A program made the translations under genes and the position numbers. Positions 18,622-28,782 of a DNA stretch of 43,385 nucleotides are shown here, piece after piece. Source of the stretch: a virus. The DNA lies in the UHGV virus genome UHGV-0217911; one strand, 5' to 3'. Under the pieces are notes generated by a model. The model saw nothing but the letters and a program-made list of their open reading frames with translations. It was not told the origin of the DNA and searched no databases. Position 1 is the first letter of the stretch, and every line of letters starts with the position of its first letter.

Positions 18622-18795
18622 ATGATAGTCAAGTCAGACGCACCAAAGTACCCTTTGCGCATCCCATTAGAGGTTAAGTTAGCAATCGAGAAGTCAGCGA
18701 AAGAAAATGGTCGCTCAATAAATACCGAGATGGTAATGCGGTTGGTGGATAGTTTAAGGCGGGATAGTTCTAAAGGTAATCTAGCAAAAAGTTGA
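18622..18795 (+). CDS. arc: Arc-like ribbon-helix-helix repressor
   Basis: 57 aa; PLRIPLEVKLAIEKSAKENGRSINTEMVMRL matches the Arc RHH pattern, with GGAGG 5 nt upstream of the ATG. Confidence 0.7.
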   Translation: MIVKSDAPKYPLRIPLEVKLAIEKSAKENGRSINTEMVMRLVDSLRRDSSKGNLAKS

Positions 18796-18857
18796 AGCCC
18801 CAACTGCGGTAACAGTCAGGGCTTCGTTATCAACAAATCGGCTTAGGAAATATTGAC

Positions 18858-19836: not shown

Positions 19837-21915
19837 ATGACAGACATTACAGCTAATGTTGTAGTGAGTATGCCTTCGCAACTCTTCACTATGGCTCGTT
19901 CTTTTAAAGCGGTTGCCAATGGCAAAATTTATATCGGTAAAATTGACACTGACCCGGTAAATCCTGAAAACCAGATTCAGGTTTATGTGGAGAACGAAGA
20001 TGGTTCTCACGTTCCTGTTGCACAGCCAATCATCATTAACTCTGGCGGGTATCCTGTATATAACGGACAGATTGCCAAATTCGTTACCGTGCAAGGCCAT
20101 TCTATGGCTGTTTATGATGCATATGGTGCGCAGCAGTTTTATTTTCCTAATGTGCTGAAGTATGACCCTGATCAGTTTCAGAAGAGGTTGGCATCCTTTG
20201 ATGATGGTGATGGGGATGAATTAGTGTCGGTGAAACAACCATTCCCCGGAGCAGCAAATCAAACTCAACACCAAAAGAACCAACAAATCATTGATGTTCT
20301 TGACTTCGGTGCTCATCCATCGAATGCTGACAATAAAGTAGCTCTGCAATTTGCGCTAGATGCAATATATAGCATTGGAGGAGGTACACTACAGTTTTCA
20401 CTACCAGGCATATATACTTTGCTTTCTGAGTTGCAAATAAAATCAAATACTCACCTAAAGATGACTGATGGCGTAACCATTAAACGTAATTTTTCTAATG
20501 ACGTCATGCTGAGAATAAGCCCTAATACTGGCACTAACATTAAAATAACAGGCGGAATACTAGATGGAGGAGGACAAGACCACCCTACAGATCCTTTTGA
20601 CATCATTGCAGCCTCCTCACCAAGAAATCTTTCTATTGTTGGAGTAACATTTCTTGATGTAGTCGATTTTCATGCTGTAGATATTGCTGACGGGCAAGGG
20701 GTGATTATAAGAGACTGTAAGTTTCTTGGCTTCAAACCACTTTCCAACCGAAATTATTCAGAAGCGATCCAGTTAGATCCGGGGATTGAATCTCTTGGCG
20801 ATTATTACCCAAACATCAATGTTCTTGTTGATAACTGTTATTTTGGTTCAAATCCACAAAATACCACCACTGGGTTTGGGGCGTGGGGGGCGGGGGTTGG
20901 GAACCATGCTAATTCATATGGGAATCAGGACAAAAATATAAGGGTCATAAACTGCAGGTTCGATGGAATGCTCTTTGCCGGGGTAAGGGTTTTCAACTGG
21001 TATGATTGGGTGGTTAGCGGATGCTCTTTCTATAACAGTACCGCGCGAGGAGTTCATGTAACCCCATTCCCATCATCATCAAAACCACAGGGGGCAAGGA
21101 GGGGGCGCATTGTTGGCAATTATTTTGAAGGCGTTAGATCCCCGATTCTTCTGGCTGCACCTACATATCCATATACAGATACATCAGATGCATTTCATGA
21201 AGATATCGTAATATCCAACAATTCCATGTTTATTACAGAGTCTCAATCATATGCAGTAGACGCAAGATGGGTTTCAGGACTAACTGTCACTGGAAACACA
21301 GCAAGAGGAGGAATCGGTTTTTTCAAAGGTGATTTTATTAATAAATCAATCATCTCTAATAATGAATACGATTCAGGAACATCAAGTTCTTTATGGATTT
21401 CTGAAACTAATGCAGAAGAATTTATAGGGTCTGGTTTTTCGCATGATGTTGTAATTTCTAGCAACATCTTTAGAAACATTTCCCTGCATGGGATTCATAT
21501 TAATGGTAAATATTCAAATGTTACTATTCAATCAAACATTATAGTTGGGGTTTCTACCGCAGATAATAACCATAATGGCATACGAATTGACTCTGGTGCA
21601 GAAAATGTAATTGTTAGTTCAAATCAAATTCGTGATGGCGTTGCAAATAATAAACCATCAGTTGGTATATTTGCTACATCAAGCTGTAAGAGCGTGTCAT
21701 TTATAGGGAATGTTTCATTTGGAACATCAGCCACACAGAATAATCAAGCTACAGATAAAAGCTCACTTGTGATATTTGGGCAAGAAGGCAACCCAACATC
21801 TAGCGGAGTTGGAGCACCAGTTGGTTCTATTTACACTCGTTCTGATGGAGGTGGAAATACAGTACTTTATATAAAGGAAAGCAACACAAATGCTACAGGT
21901 TGGGTTAATAAGTAA
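19837..21915 (+). CDS. Tailspike protein: conserved P22-type N-terminal head-binding domain plus a divergent beta-helix receptor-binding domain
   Basis: The first ~110 aa ([13 protein letters not shown]...[25 protein letters not shown]...[24 protein letters not shown]) are P22 gp9-like. The remainder is AT-rich and unlike P22, with repetitive beta-helix-like segments. Confidence 0.85.
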
Positions 21916-22199: not shown

Positions 22200-22245
22200 A
22201 TTCGTAATGCGAAGGTCGTAGGTTCGACTCCTATTATCGGCACCA
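22200..22245 (+). repeat. 46-bp copy of the tRNA-Thr (thrW-type) 3' end from anticodon loop to CCA; attR core of the P22-like prophage
   Basis: ATTCGTAATGCGAAGGTCGTAGGTTCGACTCCTATTATCGGCACCA carries the CGT anticodon loop, T-arm and acceptor 3' strand, but the 5' half of the tRNA is absent. Confidence 0.8.
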
Positions 22246-22849
22246 TTAAGAAAATCAATAACTTAGCTTAACTTCTCTAAGAAATTGTATCTTCTGTTAT
22301 CACTTACAAACGCCTATACGTTGTTATGGGCTTTGGTAGTGTAACACGTATGGGCGAGTAGTTCACAGGCTCAACCTCGTAACAAGTTCCTTTGAAGCTG
22401 GAAGACGTGCCACCGTCTCTAAACCTTCTACCAAAACTCTTAGCAAGATGTTCCACACCTGGCGCGGTGTCCAATGATGCTACACGTCGTGAGACGTTGC
22501 AGAGGATAAACAGGCTAAATGATGGGAAGAGTTTTAAGTGCATAGTGGATTAAAGCCCACCTCTTCAAAACCTAACTTGATCGGGAAAGAATCAAGCTCT
22601 AGCACGGTTTCGTCCACCGGAGTACAACGGGTGCCTGATAAGAGAAGAACTGCTAAGACTTCATAGCTTTTGTGAAAAAGCCCTTTTTAGTGGATACGCC
22701 TACGGCGCTTATTTTTTGGTATAACCATCAAAGGCGCTTTATGGCTCCTATTGTCTTGAAAATGTATCTTTACTTGTATTGTGTTTTATGCGTAGCCTTC
22801 CTGTGTAGTATGTAACTTGTTAATTTTCATATGAATACAGAGGCACACG

Positions 22850-23002
22850 ATGAAAAACATTGCAGCTATCAAACGTAATAACCGCAAGATTCACGCTCGT
22901 AAGTTCCTGTCTACGCCAGAAGGAAAAGCCTGGCTAGAGCGTAAACAGCGAGAGAACGAAGAAAGAAAACTCCTTAGTGAGTTGAAATGGCTTAAGGATT
23001 GA
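22850..23002 (+). CDS. Possible small basic protein (50 aa)
   Basis: ATG with GAGG 7 nt upstream; product MKNIAAIKRNNRKIHARKFLSTPEGKAWLERKQRENEERKLLSELKWLKD. Below the ORF-track length cutoff. Confidence 0.3.
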   Translation: MKNIAAIKRNNRKIHARKFLSTPEGKAWLERKQRENEERKLLSELKWLKD

Positions 23003-23567
23003 ATCACCAGTAGGCGCATAACACATCCAGCGATCAAAGATGTGTTTATGCACCTGATAGTGAAATTATTAAAGTCGTTTAGTTAACATCGCCATTGCTT
23101 GAGCAATAATTGCAACAGCGTCCATCTCTTCACTGGAAGCGATGCAAATGCGGTAACTAATAGCCACAACGAATACATCAATAACGAGAAAGTGAATAGT
23201 GTGAAGATGTTTTGAAAGTAAATGCATAACTTCCTCCGGTTTTACGATAGGAAGATTAGAACATGCATTAAATGATGTTACAAGGGTGGTAATTTACCCT
23301 AATAGTCTACTATTCACCTCAATCTACGTCAACCAATATTTGATGTAGATTTAATTTTCTTTTAAAAACAATGTGTTGCAATTTGTTGAATTTTGGGGTT
23401 AGGTTGTTTTTTGAACGTTTTCATCAAGTGTAAAGATACGTTTAGCCTTCATAGTGAGTTCAGTTACTGTCTTTTTCTCTGAAATCGGCGCAGACGTGAT
23501 CAATGTTTAACGCGAAGATCAGCGGCGTCAGGTCCACGCAGCGACAATTCTCAAATATCAGGAGGCA

Positions 23568-24125
23568 TTACGCTTCCTGCTCTTTCTTGATACGTTGCAC
23601 CGTCTGTGTGCTGACACTGAAATCTTTTGCTACGCTCCGAATTGATCCACCATTCGCGAGAGCGGCAACAATTCCCGCTCGATCAATTGCTTTTCCATTA
23701 CCACGTTTTGCTATACGTCCAGCGGCCTTAGCTGCGGCGATCCCCTCACGCTGCCGCTCAAGCATCATTTCACGTTCCATTTGTGCCACTGCTGCAAGCA
23801 CTGTGAGCATCATATTCCCTGCGGGAGAGTTCTTCCCTGTCTTAAAGTCTTCTTTATGGAAATGCACAGACACGCCGCGCTCTGTTAATTGCTCAACCGT
23901 TGCCAGTAGGTCGGCTGTATTACGGCAAAGTCGATCAATGCTGTGAACATGCAAAACATCACCTTCACGCACATAGTTCATCATTGCCTCAAACTGTGGG
24001 CGCTGGGTATTCTTGCCTGACGCTTTATCTTCAAAGACTTTATCAAGAGTTACTCCAGCTAATTGACGGTCTGTGTTTTGTTGGACAGTCGATACCCTAA
24101 TGTATCCAATATTAGCCATTTTCAT
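23568..24125 (-). CDS. Serine recombinase (resolvase/invertase family)
   Basis: 185 aa; N-terminal catalytic domain IGYIRVSTVQQNTDRQ with the active-site serine, and a C-terminal HTH (GGSIRSVAKDFSVSTQTVQRI). Confidence 0.85.
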   Translation of the reverse strand: MKMANIGYIRVSTVQQNTDRQLAGVTLDKVFEDKASGKNTQRPQFEAMMNYVREGDVLHVHSIDRLCRNTADLLATVEQLTERGVSVHFHKEDFKTGKNSPAGNMMLTVLAAVAQMEREMMLERQREGIAAAKAAGRIAKRGNGKAIDRAGIVAALANGGSIRSVAKDFSVSTQTVQRIKKEQEA

Positions 24126-24644
24126 TTTCCTTCTGTGTTGATTTGTGTGTAGTGATTATTGATCGTGTTGATTAGGTGTGTAAAGGACTTTTTTCACTAC
24201 GAAATTCGAAGGTTTTTAGTGTGGTGATTTAGCCTGCTTTATCACTACACGTCTTGCATGAGAATCATGTAGTTACGTTTTGGTAAAATTAGCAAGCTAT
24301 TAAATAGTGTGTTTATTTTGAAAAAATAATTTTTTGTTGCATTAAAGAAACTTGTTCGACAAATGATAGAACGTTTATTGAGCAACAATTTTGCAGTGAT
24401 GCGCTATATGCCGCATTACACAAGGCACAGCGAAAGTGATGTAAAAGTGAAGAAAGCTAACATTGCACTTTTAAGCTACTTTTCATTGAATTTTTACGTA
24501 GGAATTACACAGGGATTAATCATCAATTACATTGAATTTAAGCCTGTTTTAGATGTTTAATTTTGGTAGCAAGAAACACTTTTAGAAGATCATTGCACAG
24601 ATGTTATGTGATAAATGGATGTAACGGTAGGTCACTGTGAACTA

Positions 24645-24780
24645 CCCCCACAGAATTCTGTTATCCTTAACTTTTAAAGAAATATGCACCCTAACAGAAA
24701 ACTGTTACCCCAACCCTAACAGAATTATGTTAGACACCCCCACAGAAAACTGTTAGCCACCCCTACAGAATTTTGTTACC
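24645..24780. repeat. Five iterons (1 + 4 tandem, about 22-23 bp period), each containing the dyad AACAG-N4-CTGTT
   Basis: ACAGAA cores at 24650, 24694, 24719, 24742 and 24765; consensus CCCYWACAGAAWWYTGTTA, followed by an AT-rich stretch. Confidence 0.7.
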
Positions 24781-25742
24781 TATTAGATCAACTATCAAAC
24801 TACAATTAAATTATCTTTTATAAATTCTTTTATCTTTAAAGAATAATTAAGGGATACCCGTTAGGGAGTCTTCGACTATCCCTTAATCTATTGGCATTCG
24901 CCAGAACCTTGCACAAGTTAGAGTGTTAGTCGTTAGACTGCTTGTCATAACACATAGTTTTTTGTTTGTTGATGTTAGTTAGTAGATCTATGTTCGCTAA
25001 TGCCGCTCACAACGAATATGTAATCTACTATGTGCAAATAGCCTACGGCTTGCGTAAGGCTAAATAGTCTTGCGCTGTGCGCAGAACGATAATTAACTAA
25101 CTACCATCTAACGATTGAAATTTACTTGTGCAATAACCTGAGCGTAAGCGAATGGTTGTTAGTGTCTATGCGCTGTGCGCTTCAATAGTTCCATTGATGA
25201 GGCTTACGCCAATCTAACGATCATCAATCTATTTAAGAGAAAATCTATTGTGCAATACTCTGACGAGTGCAATAACCTTGTGTGCTACGCGTTAGCGATG
25301 TTAGCACACAGACAACAACCAACAACAAACAAAAAAGAAAGAATGGTTTTAGTAGTTGAAGGTTAAATAAGTTTCTACCGCTTAAATCAAGCCGTAGGCG
25401 AGCTAAACGTATATAAGGTAGGGAAACACTTAGCGGTAATAGATTAGCTCGTTATAGAGCTTCTGAGAGCTTTGCAGGTATTTTATAAGGTGTTTGAAAT
25501 CAGAGTTTATCTATCATCATCTTTCCATCATCTAACAAATACAAAATAAGCCCCTTAAACAAGCCTCTGACGAGATAAATAGCCTCTACATAAGGGAATG
25601 TCTTGTTTTTATCAAAACCTCGTCAGAATGCGATTGAGAGCGTTTTAGACAATAGTGGAGAATTGTACCAGATAAGATAGCACAAAAAGATAAGAAAAAT
25701 TATAAGAAATTGAAAAAGATCGTATTTTTTATGAAAGGGGGG

Positions 25743-25771
25743 TTGACAAAAGCCTCCATATGTAGTAAAGT
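25743..25771 (+). promoter_or_regulatory. Sigma70-like promoter candidate (TTGACA-17 bp-TAAAGT) for the downstream four-gene module
   Basis: Consensus -35 TTGACA with 17-bp spacing to a TAnnnT -10, about 120 bp upstream of the first ORF. Confidence 0.35.
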
Positions 25772-25891
25772 AAATGTGAGGGGTAAGAAAAGCATCTCCC
25801 CCATCTAAATAATCAAATCACAATACACTGCACTTTGAGCCGTCAGGCTGCAAGGTGTGTTTTTCTTTTATTTGAATAAGGAATTACAAAA

Positions 25892-26074
25892 ATGAAATGG
25901 TTTACACCAAATGACATTGTTTCTGCGTATCTCGCTGGTGAGATGACCCGCTACCAGGTTCGCCAGAATCGTAATACAGCCCGTCGCCGTGGCTACCCAG
26001 AGCGTGAAAAATGCTTTGACGACGCACTAAAAATTATTGATGAACTGCGTAAGGCAGAAGCAGAGAAAGAATAA
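25892..26074 (+). CDS. Small hypothetical protein (60 aa)
   Basis: ORF with AAGGAA 8 nt upstream; first gene of a tightly packed module. Confidence 0.45.
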   Translation: MKWFTPNDIVSAYLAGEMTRYQVRQNRNTARRRGYPEREKCFDDALKIIDELRKAEAEKE

Positions 26075-26095
26075 TAACAGGAGAAGGAGAAAACT

Positions 26096-26266
26096 ATGAG
26101 CGAAACTACAGAAAAGAAAAGACAACCACGCACTTGCTTTCATATTCCTGATGAAGTATTTCAGGTGTTGTTTAAAGAAGCCAGAAGTAAACGTATCACT
26201 GTTACAGATTACATTCTTGATATGTTGAAAAGAGAGGCTGAAACACTCTCAAACAAAAGCAAGTGA
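26096..26266 (+). CDS. Small ribbon-helix-helix-like DNA-binding protein (56 aa)
   Basis: GGAGAAGGAG SD; product MSETTEKKRQPRTCFHIPDEVFQVLFKEARSKRITVTDYILDMLKREAE has a beta-strand/helix/helix arrangement typical of CopG/Arc-type RHH proteins. Below the track cutoff. Confidence 0.5.
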   Translation: MSETTEKKRQPRTCFHIPDEVFQVLFKEARSKRITVTDYILDMLKREAETLSNKSK

Positions 26267-26319
26267 TTTTTATCACCATAGTAGCGCCGTAGAGCGTGAT
26301 TACATCAAGGAGATTTTTA

Positions 26320-26880
26320 ATGATTAATGAAGAACAATTTGTAAAAGTTCCTATGTGGATTCTAAAAATAAGCCAAGTAAACGGGCATAAATTTACAGAT
26401 AGTGCTAAAAACCTTTACTGCTATTTGAGAGGGTTTGATCGTGCATTTCCCTCTTACGCTAAGATAGGCGATGTTTTTGGCATAACACCAAGAGCAGCAG
26501 AAGAAAGGGTTAAGAAATTGCTCGAAATGGGATTAATTATAAAAGATGCACGACCAGGAAGCTCTAACCTTTATCGAGTGCTTGATATTCCAAAAGGAGA
26601 ATCATCACTACCTGATCCTTCTGAGAAAGAAAACGAATCTAATGAAATATTGAATGTTTCAGAAATCATCGTTGAAGAAGAAATACAGGAATCAGAGTTC
26701 CCTGAGCGGCCCGAAATTTTTACTTGGCTTCTTTCCCTTGATAAGAAGAAACCACCGCACGAAGAAACAGAAGACTACGAAGCATTAGAGCGTTATCGTG
26801 ATGAAGTGCTGACGCTCAAGACACCTTTTAACATCGTATTGAATATGATTAATGATGCATTACAAGGAGAAGCCGCATAA
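26320..26880 (+). CDS. Winged-HTH protein resembling phage/plasmid replication initiator N-terminal domains
   Basis: AAGGAG SD before the ATG at 26320. N-terminal NLYCYLRGFDRAFPSYAKIGDVFGITPRAAEERVKKLLEMGLI is a wHTH pattern seen in Rep/replisome-organizer proteins; the C-terminus is acidic. Confidence 0.55.
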   Translation: MINEEQFVKVPMWILKISQVNGHKFTDSAKNLYCYLRGFDRAFPSYAKIGDVFGITPRAAEERVKKLLEMGLIIKDARPGSSNLYRVLDIPKGESSLPDPSEKENESNEILNVSEIIVEEEIQESEFPERPEIFTWLLSLDKKKPPHEETEDYEALERYRDEVLTLKTPFNIVLNMINDALQGEAA

Positions 26881-27188
26881 TGGAAGAAGATATTAGCAAT
26901 GCAATGGAACAACTTTTAGATCTGACTATCTCACTACAAACAAGAATAAATCAAGCCTATTCAGATTTATGCGATTACACGCTCTCTCAATGCGTTATTA
27001 GCTTAATGAAGGTGAATGTAAGCCTTGACGATTTTATCTCTCTGGTGAGCGATTTAGAGCTAATTGAGGACGATGCCAAGATGTGCACTCAAACCATCAC
27101 AGACACCGCCAGCACGTTAAAGGCTGCAAGTGAAGAGATTCAGCAATTAGTAGATGATTTAGCAAAAAGTGCTATTTTCTCTAAATGA
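26880..27188 (+). CDS. Acidic hypothetical protein (102 aa)
   Basis: ORF with start overlapping the upstream stop (translational coupling). Confidence 0.5.
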   Translation: MEEDISNAMEQLLDLTISLQTRINQAYSDLCDYTLSQCVISLMKVNVSLDDFISLVSDLELIEDDAKMCTQTITDTASTLKAASEEIQQLVDDLAKSAIFSK

Positions 27189-27460
27189 TAATGAAAATTA
27201 TTTGCATTTATAACGATTTCATTATATAATAATATTAGGGGTAGATAAAAAGGTTTTGACTGGTGTTAATCCTTCTACTGTCATAAATCCCTGCATATGG
27301 AAGGTGATAGCCTCAAAGGTTGAGTGGCATTAACCTCTAACAAATATTACCTTCCATCCCCTCAAGAAGTTTTAGAATAATCATAACTCCCTCTTTGATT
27401 GTTGATTGTTTCTACGTTGTGTTGATGAATGTTGTTAGGCATTGTGCTTAATTTTGATAA

Positions 27461-27508
27461 AAGCGGGTAGGTGTTATCTCCTTGCCCTTCCCGCTTTTAT
27501 TTTTCATC
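27461..27508 (+). terminator. Terminator-like hairpin plus T-run
   Basis: AAAAGCGGG ... CCCGCTTTT stem with TATTTTT tail. Confidence 0.4.
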
Positions 27509-28182
27509 TATGCTTATCCTAAAGCTCCTTATTTTGTCCGAAAACATTAAAGAGCCTTACACTGATAGTTATATTTTATAACTATTTACTAACATCATTA
27601 AACTCTTATTTAATGACGGAAGTTAGTAACAGAATAATCTATTAAGTTGTTGTCAAAAACAATCATCTGCATAGCGTTAGCCGCAAGCAGAGAGAGTTTA
27701 GCTAAGAATTGTGCAATAACCTTTGGAAATATTGATAGCAAAACGGGTTTTATAGACTGCAAATCTATAATCTTTGGTTGTAAAAACGCTTTTTCTGAAA
27801 CGGTAGATTATTGTTGGTGTAGTTAATCCTATTAAAATTTAATCTGTGAGTAGATGAGAATTGGAATAGTGATTCCTTAAAGCCTTACTTTGTTGCATCC
27901 ACAGCAAAAACAGGCAGCGGTTAGCCACCGCATCCAGAATATCAGATCTTAGTGATTCCAGGGGCAACTCCTAAGAGCCTTCCTTCTAAGATCTGATATT
28001 CATCCTTTAAGCATATCATCAAGTATATTTAAAAAGTGTATTTGCTGATATGTTTAATCCTCTTATAGTTTAACTTATCAATTATGTAATTGCCCGCACG
28101 TTAAAGCCCCTTTGCTGGTCAGAATTAACCTCTTACGGCATTGGGGCTTTTTATTTGTCTGGCACTAACAGGAACGTTATTT

Positions 28183-28380
28183 ATGAAACAAGAAATGATT
28201 ATCAGCAAAGACGGGGAAACGATGATTGTTAGTGATGAAAACCTCATTAAGGTTGCCGCACTGTTGGGAGTTACTCCCGAAAGTCTTCGTTCTACCACTG
28301 CCCAATTATTTAAATCGGCTGATGCGGTTAGTCTTGCTGATGCCCTTAAATCTAAAATTAAACAACTGAAAGGAAAATAA
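28183..28380 (+). CDS. Small hypothetical protein (65 aa), first gene of a six-gene operon
   Basis: ATG at 28183 with AGGA upstream; the track ORF start at 28141 lies inside an upstream hairpin. Confidence 0.5.
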   Translation: MKQEMIISKDGETMIVSDENLIKVAALLGVTPESLRSTTAQLFKSADAVSLADALKSKIKQLKGK

Positions 28381-28384
28381 TCTT

Positions 28385-28768
28385 ATGGCTAACCCATATG
28401 GAAAATTAAAAGCAGTGAATGCGGATAATTCCCGTTCACGCTGTAAGGTAGTAGCTTACGCTGCTGATCCAGTGCTGCAAGATCGCCTCGTCAAACTGGC
28501 TTCACCTCTCACTGACGATCTTATTGTCGGGGCTTTGCTGAAAGCCGATGGCACCAAAGCAACAACTGCATCTGATATTGCTCACGTAGTAGTTGAACCG
28601 GCTTATGAAGGACAGGAAAGCGTAGTGGTTGCACATCCTACTTTCGTTATTCTGGCTGAAGATGGGATTGAATTTAACAGCATGGAAAAGGCAAGTGTTA
28701 TTGCAAAACTGCAATCTCTCGGCTTTGTAATTGCTGGTTATGAAGAACTTGCGATCCCTACGACTTAA
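28385..28768 (+). CDS. Hypothetical protein (127 aa)
   Basis: Tightly packed behind the preceding gene (4-bp gap); no motif recognized. Confidence 0.6.
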   Translation: MANPYGKLKAVNADNSRSRCKVVAYAADPVLQDRLVKLASPLTDDLIVGALLKADGTKATTASDIAHVVVEPAYEGQESVVVAHPTFVILAEDGIEFNSMEKASVIAKLQSLGFVIAGYEELAIPTT

Positions 28769-28782
28769 CAAGGAAAATAATA

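Follow-up and report, generated by a model that had tools for sequence, protein, structure and literature searches.

Candidate replication origin in a phage-satellite-like island of Escherichia coli: an iteron array that is exchanged together with the DNA-binding domain of an initiator-like protein

The window (the whole stretch of 43,385 nt that was analysed) carries an island of 12.1 kb, located at 22227-34346 and integrated at thrW in E. coli. From left to right, the island consists of small ORFs, a serine recombinase gene, a gap that harbours a repeat array, an operon that encodes a wHTH protein, a second gap, the genes of a 343-aa, a 633-aa and a 218-aa protein, and an integrase gene. Its principal features are:

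22227-22247 (+): left copy of the 21-bp direct repeat ACTCCTATTATCGGCACCATT; it forms the 3′ end of a partial copy of thrW at 22200-22245
23568-24125 (−): small serine recombinase of the resolvase/invertase type
24126-25891: ORF-poor gap of 1.77 kb that contains the array
25743-25771 (+): promoter-like site TTGACA-17-TAAAGT upstream of the wHTH operon, a consensus match only
26096-26266 (+): 56-aa RHH-like protein
26320-26880 (+): initiator-like wHTH protein of 186 aa, within an operon of small genes
26762-26774 (+): deletion junction, at which ~770 bp between two GAAACAGAAGA repeats were lost relative to two related loci (L004 and L007)
30200-32831 (+): adjacent genes of the 633-aa and the 218-aa (Dit-like) proteins
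32906-34270 (−): tyrosine integrase of the island
34326-34346 (+): second, right-hand copy of ACTCCTATTATCGGCACCATT (21 bp), which marks the island end

The island thus combines the features of a phage satellite, namely a length of 12.1 kb, a tyrosine integrase, flanking 21-bp repeats, a putative origin/Rep module and only two to three structural-like genes. The 343-aa protein resembles a ‘major head' protein and was not called a capsid, as its PHROG match is weak (E 1e-4) and no tblastn match was found in phages. A second ORF-poor gap of ~950 nt (27189-28140) separates the initiator operon from the structural-like genes. No recognisable gene for a helicase, primase, loader or polymerase was found in the island using Pfam and PHROGs, and searches of NCBIfam and PADLOC with the island proteins returned no hits.

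Just upstream of the partial thrW copy are a sar RNA (Rfam RF00262, 70 bits; 18790-18856) and a 692-aa ORF (19837-21915), which suggests that the island is accompanied at thrW by a P22-like prophage integrated in tandem. Correspondence with NZ_CP082776 places the gene of the vat autotransporter toxin and a MarR-like neighbour just right of the island (~35272-40052, −); as the vat genes adjoin it, the island is part of the VAT-PAI at thrW, where a vat island is already known (PMC6956023). An IS009 RNA match (42782-42982) lies further right, and no intact tRNA was found in the window.

A match to the array region is present in ~600 of 5,426 complete E. coli genomes; ~25 complete genomes have a region at least 99% identical to that of the window. 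Of 574 places in E. coli genomes where the element was found, 572 are chromosomal integrations. The island is located directly at tRNA-Thr beside proA in some other strains and at tRNA-Gly beside actS in others. A copy of the type-C island (types are defined below), interrupted by three IS3-family insertions, is carried near sopAB by the IncF plasmid pEND_Eco 19019-1 (NZ_CP126938), while no autonomous plasmid carrying this origin/initiator module was found in PLSDB. Outside Escherichia, a scan of GTDB species revealed the initiator family in a single MAG contig and no further distant types; this contig (JAEWTL010000083.1, ‘MAG: Bacillota bacterium') harbours a type-C island whose array pattern, initiator length (226 aa) and tail are those of the E. 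coli type-C loci, and it is probably a mis-binned Escherichia contig.

Within the first gap, five direct repeats of ~23 nt each (type A hereafter) were found at 24643-24780 (+) by a repeat search, by TRF and by direct reading. The array and its immediate surroundings are:

24628-24644 (+): single repeat of type E, TAGGTCACTGTGAACTA, just upstream of the type-A array
24643-24665, 24687-24709, 24712-24734, 24735-24757 and 24758-24780 (+): the five type-A units of 23 nt
24650, 24694, 24719, 24742 and 24765 (+): starts of the type-A cores, ACAGAA-N3-TGTTA
24782-24846: A+T-rich stretch of 65 nt (85% A+T), a candidate DNA-unwinding element
24846-24887: inverted repeat ATTAAGGGATA / TATCCCTTAAT with an 11-bp stem and two small inner hairpins, directly after the A+T-rich stretch

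The unit starts determined by the repeat search with a 24-nt unit (24643, 24687, 24712, 24735 and 24758) correspond to spacings of 44, 25, 23 and 23 nt, and the tandem part (24687-24778) was reported by TRF with periods of 23 and 48 (scores from 78 to 131). Four tandem units plus one upstream copy, with a period of about two helical turns, had been described in the first-pass annotation, and this layout was independently recovered by the repeat search, its tandem part also by TRF. The core ACAGAANNNTGTTA (one mismatch at most) occurs seven times in the 43-kb window, six of them inside 24650-24778, while ~1.18 matches are expected by chance; as seven occurrences were reached in none of 100 shuffles, a chance origin of the array is excluded. 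The internal dyad proved looser than initially read: the form AACAG-N4-CTGTT, which had been assigned to each unit, is exact in copy 2 only, whereas ACAG-N4-CTGT is found in three copies and ACA-N6-TGT in all five. The E-type copy at 24628-24644, which the first-pass annotation had not mentioned, belongs to a conserved leader, and lone non-cognate repeats precede the cognate array in many relatives; the most upstream A copy (24643) persists as a lone A copy in relatives that have B, D or E initiators.

The A+T-rich stretch that had been seen after the array is delimited by the coordinates above, with the lowest G+C content after the array (13%) over the 60 nt at 24790-24849. As single-stranded DNA, the inverted repeat that follows (24846-24887) folds into a small three-way structure (−11.1 kcal/mol; z = −4.3). 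This hairpin is conserved in one island lineage and deleted in some copies, and a G+C-rich segment of ~170 nt takes its place in the other lineage. After the hairpin come ~850-900 nt of conserved non-coding DNA (24890-25740), where TGCGCTGTGCGC is found at 25071 and 25169 (it occurs in the other island lineage as well), GTGCAATAACCT-like motifs at 25128, 25250 and 25267, and long-range inverted repeats ~330 nt apart.

That no coding sequence explains the array also held up, as the only ORF across it is a 39-aa GTG ORF and RefSeq annotates nothing there. The DnaA box TTWTNCACA is absent from the gap, and neither a DnaA box with up to one mismatch nor the IHF consensus was found in 24500-25000. 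DnaA boxes and IHF sites are frequent at iteron origins, though not obligatory. They are missing as well from the descriptions of ori-lambda and of the PLE origin (PMC7466680, PMC7145576, PMC8263062).

The array was compared among 33 related Escherichia island loci, which represent two backbone lineages. The flanks of the array are conserved among these relatives, while the array itself is swapped for unrelated repeats, so that five types are distinguished:

Type A: ACAGAA-N3-TGTTA
Type B: TAGGAAATGAGTTCCTA
Type C: GTAACGAT-N2-GTTACA
Type D: CCCCTATCAA-N3-TGATAC
Type E: GGGGGTAGGTCA-N2-GTGARCTA

In all 33 relatives, whichever the type, the repeats feature an internal dyad, are arranged in a same-orientation tandem array and are followed by a stretch of 77-95% A+T. 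The wHTH protein varies as well: five versions of its N-terminal ~90-120 aa were found, with 20-30% mutual identity, plus two versions of the linker and C-terminal part. The multi-copy array that abuts the A+T-rich stretch matched the type of the N-terminal domain one to one in all 33 loci and for all five types; types A, B and E were each found on both backbone lineages, giving eight domain-by-backbone combinations. Four apparent exceptions were caused by a loosely matching ‘B' site ~500 nt downstream, which was rejected as spurious (three mismatches and no GGAAAT/ATTTCC core).

Pairwise comparison of near-identical backbones revealed exactly two non-homologous cassettes, one being the iterons and the other starting with the 56-aa gene and including the DNA-binding domain. 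These cassettes lie 1.0-1.4 kb apart, with homologous DNA between them. As two separated segments always change together, they appear to encode a cognate protein/site pair that is matched by selection; an operator, a packaging site or a recognition site would co-vary equally. Two other island proteins were considered as binder and rejected, as neither co-varies with the repeat type. One is the RHH-like protein (26096-26266), which the first-pass annotation had offered as an alternative: its gene lies inside the swapped cassette in some locus pairs, and the same 56-aa allele (WP_000005056) was found with A, C and E arrays. The other is the serine recombinase, the same allele of which (WP_001273867) accompanies type A and type C arrays, and type-A arrays persist in islands without a recombinase (L004 and L006). 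On this comparison of loci, the repeats are very probably the cognate binding sites of the wHTH domain.

In every locus, those with stacked arrays included, the cognate array is the last one, directly beside the A+T-rich stretch. For example, one stacked locus features C, E, A and D repeats, then B repeats with their own A+T-rich stretch, and then E repeats with theirs. As stacked arrays each have their own A+T-rich stretch, the repeats and this stretch behave as a module, and the stacking suggests repeated capture of cassettes via recombination at the putative origin. Stacked or fossil cassettes were located in relatives at L014:2890-3310, L015:2850-3300 and L009:3050-3300, only the last cassette matching the resident initiator.

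The initiator-like gene is 1.54 kb away from the array, consistent with the Rep-like wHTH gene that had been noted ~1.5 kb downstream. Residues 1 to ~90 of its product form the type-A wHTH domain, which is followed by an acidic disordered linker. All five versions of the N-terminal domain match PHROGs annotated as replication initiation protein, O-like or DnaD-like helicase loader (E values down to 1e-10). In Pfam, HTH_36 exceeded the cutoff with type D and with the phage fusion described below and stayed under the gathering score with type A, and two further families were matched by the type-B domain only, namely DnaD_N (weak; E 0.06) and Phage_rep_O (E 0.014, below the cutoff). A PDB profile search with the five domains returned generic wHTH regulators only, with TubR among the weak hits (E 0.0078), and homologues are labelled in RefSeq as ‘transcriptional regulator' or ‘LexA family'. 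The AlphaFold model of the 186-aa protein was poor (mean pLDDT of 50, with 59-80 in the N-terminal domain). On this poor model, Foldseek found generic wHTH matches (E ≥ 0.015), among which the longest alignments were with the RepA_N N-terminal domains 4pta and 4pql (105-106 columns; E 0.03-0.06).

The C-terminal tail of the family is short and conserved: it reads YDS[IL]PF in 91 and DFD[IL]PF in 11 of 120 database homologues, so that nearly every full-length homologue has one of the two motifs (see also L006:4843-5496), and the tail is kept on both of the dissimilar C-terminal versions. In E. coli SSB, the C-terminal tip is DDDIPF and mediates the protein contacts of SSB (PMC5872125). The ..DFDIPF and ..YDSIPF tails of the homologues resemble this tip, and such a tail might recruit an SSB-partner protein of the host or of a helper to the origin. 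In the window, the deletion at 26762-26774 joined the initiator gene in frame to that of a 67-aa protein further downstream, so that residue ~152 is now followed by the final 34 aa of the latter. The initiator thereby lost 37 aa at its C-terminus, the ..IPF tail among them, and a 127-aa gene was removed as well (26762-26880 of the window compared with L004:4512-5857). The deleted allele (186 aa, 100% identical) is also present in E. coli CU532-9 (L002) and in an IMG/VR contig (L016). As the tail was lost by deletion while the iterons are intact, the window would hold an intact origin with a probably crippled initiator, and its island copy may replicate only when a type-A initiator is provided in trans.

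The same domain types were found in virulent phages of the Stephanstirmvirinae. Over 353 nt, the type-A domain gene shares 99.2% identity with a gene that belongs to one of them, Mt1B1_P17 (Phapecoctavirus). The product of that phage gene (QNJ49226; MT496970 20722-21708, L003:4042-5028) is 328 aa long and consists of a type-A domain, a type-B domain and a C-terminal endonuclease domain of ~95 aa. The C-terminal domain matches PHROG 681 ‘endonuclease' (E 2.4e-18) and, below the Pfam cutoff, MUG113 (E 4e-4) and T5orf172 (E 0.04); ORFs of other phages that are annotated as homing endonuclease or GIY-YIG were matched as well. The same A+B arrangement is present in phage BI-EHEC (L037:301-1266), and in phage inny (Justusliebigvirus; L036:238-1341) a C and a B domain are joined to the same nuclease domain. 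The phage-borne domains are 92-100% identical to those of the islands. No A, B, D or E site was found in the 150 kb of Mt1B1_P17 that were scanned, so QNJ49226 is without a cognate target there. By their domain composition, these phage proteins look like a dual-specificity analogue of ICP1 Odn, with cleavage predicted. The annotated SSB of the same phage (QNJ49289, L034:5862-6794) reads ..PPMDFDDDIPF followed by 15 residues, APIGLQYGRNFLHCF, before the stop; because of these residues the usual tip is internal as annotated.

A further connection to phages is provided by the 633-aa and 218-aa proteins of the island, which are 32-34% and 61-65% identical, respectively, to the products of two adjacent tail genes that are found almost only in Stephanstirmvirinae-like phages of ~150 kb. 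This similarity, to phAPEC8-like phages among others, points to Stephanstirmvirinae as the helper or target group of the island. Together with the phage nucleases, it suggests for the island a role as satellite or antagonist of Stephanstirmvirinae and that the iterons could be a critical cis element worth attacking.

The array is interpreted as the initiator-binding part of the replication origin of the phage-satellite-like integrative island, with a probability of roughly 0.7. The basis of this reading is that the repeats always swap with the DNA-binding domain of the initiator and that virulent phages carry nucleases of those very domains. Five dyad-bearing repeats at 23-25-nt spacing, the 65 nt of 85% A+T and a stable inverted repeat make up the anatomy of the putative origin. 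An origin bound by a Rep protein had been proposed in the first-pass annotation; the co-variation in 33 of 33 loci, the matches to initiator PHROGs and the constant stretch of 77-95% A+T all argue for it.

The main rival is an array of operators, with the wHTH protein acting as a transcription regulator (for example, a master repressor or activator) of the recombinase gene or of a transcript from the gap, since co-variation alone cannot separate operator from origin: a regulator and its operator would co-vary just as strictly. It accords with the names that RefSeq gives to the homologues, with the mostly repressor-type wHTH proteins returned by the fold and PDB searches, and with a weak minus-strand promoter-like site (24798-24770) that overlaps the array end. 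However, ~520 nt lie between the array and the start of the recombinase gene, and the promoter-like site of the wHTH operon is ~960 nt downstream of the array; no extra type-A site was found near that promoter-like site, and neither promoter has one. Moreover, a run of four to five equally oriented sites ahead of a stretch of 13% G+C is typical of origins, every domain type matches initiator PHROGs, stacked arrays each retain an A+T-rich stretch, and the conserved SSB-tip-like tail would be unexplained for a repressor. An operator array is thus considered unlikely.

Less probable still, by about half, is a pac-like site at which the wHTH protein marks the island DNA for helper capsids. Satellites need a packaging signal in cis, and pac sites can have repeats that are bound by small DNA-binding proteins; in addition, a phage nuclease that cuts such a site would also cripple the island. 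Yet the protein is without similarity to small terminases and finds its best family matches among initiators, and an A+T-rich element of the unwinding type is no feature of pac.

A partition centromere bound by a TubR-like wHTH or a ParR-like RHH adaptor, the alternative named in the first-pass annotation, is very improbable. A period of about two helical turns would fit it too, TubR is among the weak PDB profile hits (E 0.0078), and the plasmid-borne copy is near sopAB. However, no NTPase of the ParA, ParM or TubZ type was found among the island proteins searched (Pfam, PHROGs, NCBIfam and PADLOC), sopAB are IncF backbone genes that the left end of the island separates from it, the element is chromosomal at nearly all places found (572 of 574), and the RHH-like protein does not co-vary with the repeats.

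Two further readings have hardly any probability. For a res-like accessory or crossover site of the neighbouring serine recombinase, a resolvase-type gene 520 nt away and an inverted sub-repeat in every repeat could be adduced, but a dyad of 12-14 bp is too short for a resolvase dimer site, and recombinase alleles are shared between A and C arrays or missing altogether beside type-A arrays, as described above. Membership in a structured, conserved ncRNA, which the first-pass annotation had named as the finding that would overturn an origin, could draw on the ORF-poor gap of 1.77 kb and on the single-strand fold of the array (z = −3.9, as for any set of dyads), but Rfam has no match in the gap (window, gap and three relatives searched), the centroid structure is empty, and unrelated repeats in the same slot between conserved flanks run counter to what conservation of an RNA structure would produce. 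A repeat that arose by chance or is decaying belongs to the same improbable reading, and the shuffles exclude chance.

Regarding the origin, the anatomy, the strict iteron/domain co-variation, the homology of the domains to phage initiators and the phage nucleases of the same domains are observed, and from them we infer a course of binding, unwinding and replication with dependence on a helper and a role for the tail. Dimers of the N-terminal wHTH domain (26320-26880) would occupy the five semi-palindromic type-A iterons, whose spacing is about two helical turns, and the nucleoprotein complex would then destabilise the adjoining 65-nt A+T-rich stretch. As no recognisable helicase, primase or polymerase is encoded in the island, the replisome components would have to be supplied by the host or by a helper phage during infection, the latter probably belonging to the Stephanstirmvirinae. 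Their recruitment might proceed via the acidic linker of the initiator and its SSB-tip-like ..DFDIPF or ..YDSIPF tail.

An iteron origin served by a wHTH initiator is a textbook arrangement, and the island shares helically phased repeats of ~20 nt, an unwinding element (here a candidate) and a wHTH initiator with iteron plasmids of the RepA, pi, RepE and TrfA type; unlike these, it lacks a DnaA box and a second wHTH domain and is integrated in the chromosome. SaPI and PICI elements have their own iteron origin with an A+T-rich region and an island-specific Rep, which in SaPI is a helicase coupled to a primase. The present element likewise is an integrative satellite-like island in which iterons are combined with an A+T-rich region and Rep specificity varies from island to island, yet its protein has no helicase or primase domains.

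In ori-lambda, the iterons are 19-bp imperfect inverted repeats with an adjoining A+T-rich region (PMC7466680). Both systems feature four to six iterons that are imperfect inverted repeats beside an A+T-rich region, and an initiator that binds via its N-terminal domain (as predicted here), the O-like PHROG matches of the island domain indicating distant relatedness only. Three differences were found: the lambda origin is inside the O gene whereas the putative origin of the island precedes the initiator gene by 1.5 kb, the island does not encode a P-like helicase loader, and the island protein is much shorter with an unrelated C-terminal part.

The closest architectural parallel is found between PLE of Vibrio and its phage ICP1. 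PLE RepA is without helicase and primase activities, and a helper phage is needed for PLE replication (PMC7145576); ICP1 Odn mimics the specificity of RepA and cuts the PLE origin at the iterons, an attack that is believed to favour the swapping of origin and RepA N-domain modules (PMC8263062). PLE and the island have in common a non-coding origin (putative in the island) of semi-palindromic direct repeats (PMC7145576, PMC8263062), an initiator that has its DNA-binding domain at the N-terminus and is devoid of helicase and primase, and the exchange of origin and N-terminal domain together as modules between variants; Odn and the coliphage proteins both join an initiator DNA-binding domain to a GIY-YIG/T5orf172-type domain in a virulent phage. 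On the other hand, host and phages are Escherichia and Stephanstirmvirinae here, five specificity types are found as compared with two, two DNA-binding domains in tandem are present in the coliphage nucleases, and a tyrosine integrase at tRNA genes takes the place of the large serine recombinase of PLE. The likeness to PLE RepA is one of architecture; the RepA_N fold is only hinted at, and the initiator here ends in an SSB-tip-like tail. Neither this island family nor a coliphage analogue of Odn was found described in the literature.

The kind of element is classical, and what sets it apart is the modular system of five types, the tail and the mirrored phage nucleases. As a broader and more tentative reading, for which the odds are slightly short of even, the island could be the Escherichia counterpart of Vibrio PLE/ICP1: a satellite of Stephanstirmvirinae with at least five shuffled specificities, under attack by dual-specificity nucleases, in which an SSB-tip mimic replaces a helicase, loader or primase domain.

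In E. coli, the island family is common and in some strains neighbours the vat toxin locus; except for its recombinases it is unannotated. Its domain types are mirrored in the nucleases of virulent coliphages in use in phage-therapy collections. If the reading is true, the island would provide a tractable E. coli model of the arms race between satellite and phage, which is known in detail mainly from Vibrio cholerae, and would explain some of the differences in host range between phages of the phAPEC8-like and phi92-like kinds. A minimal initiator with an SSB-tip-like tail would also make the recruitment of a replisome by helicase-less initiators directly testable.
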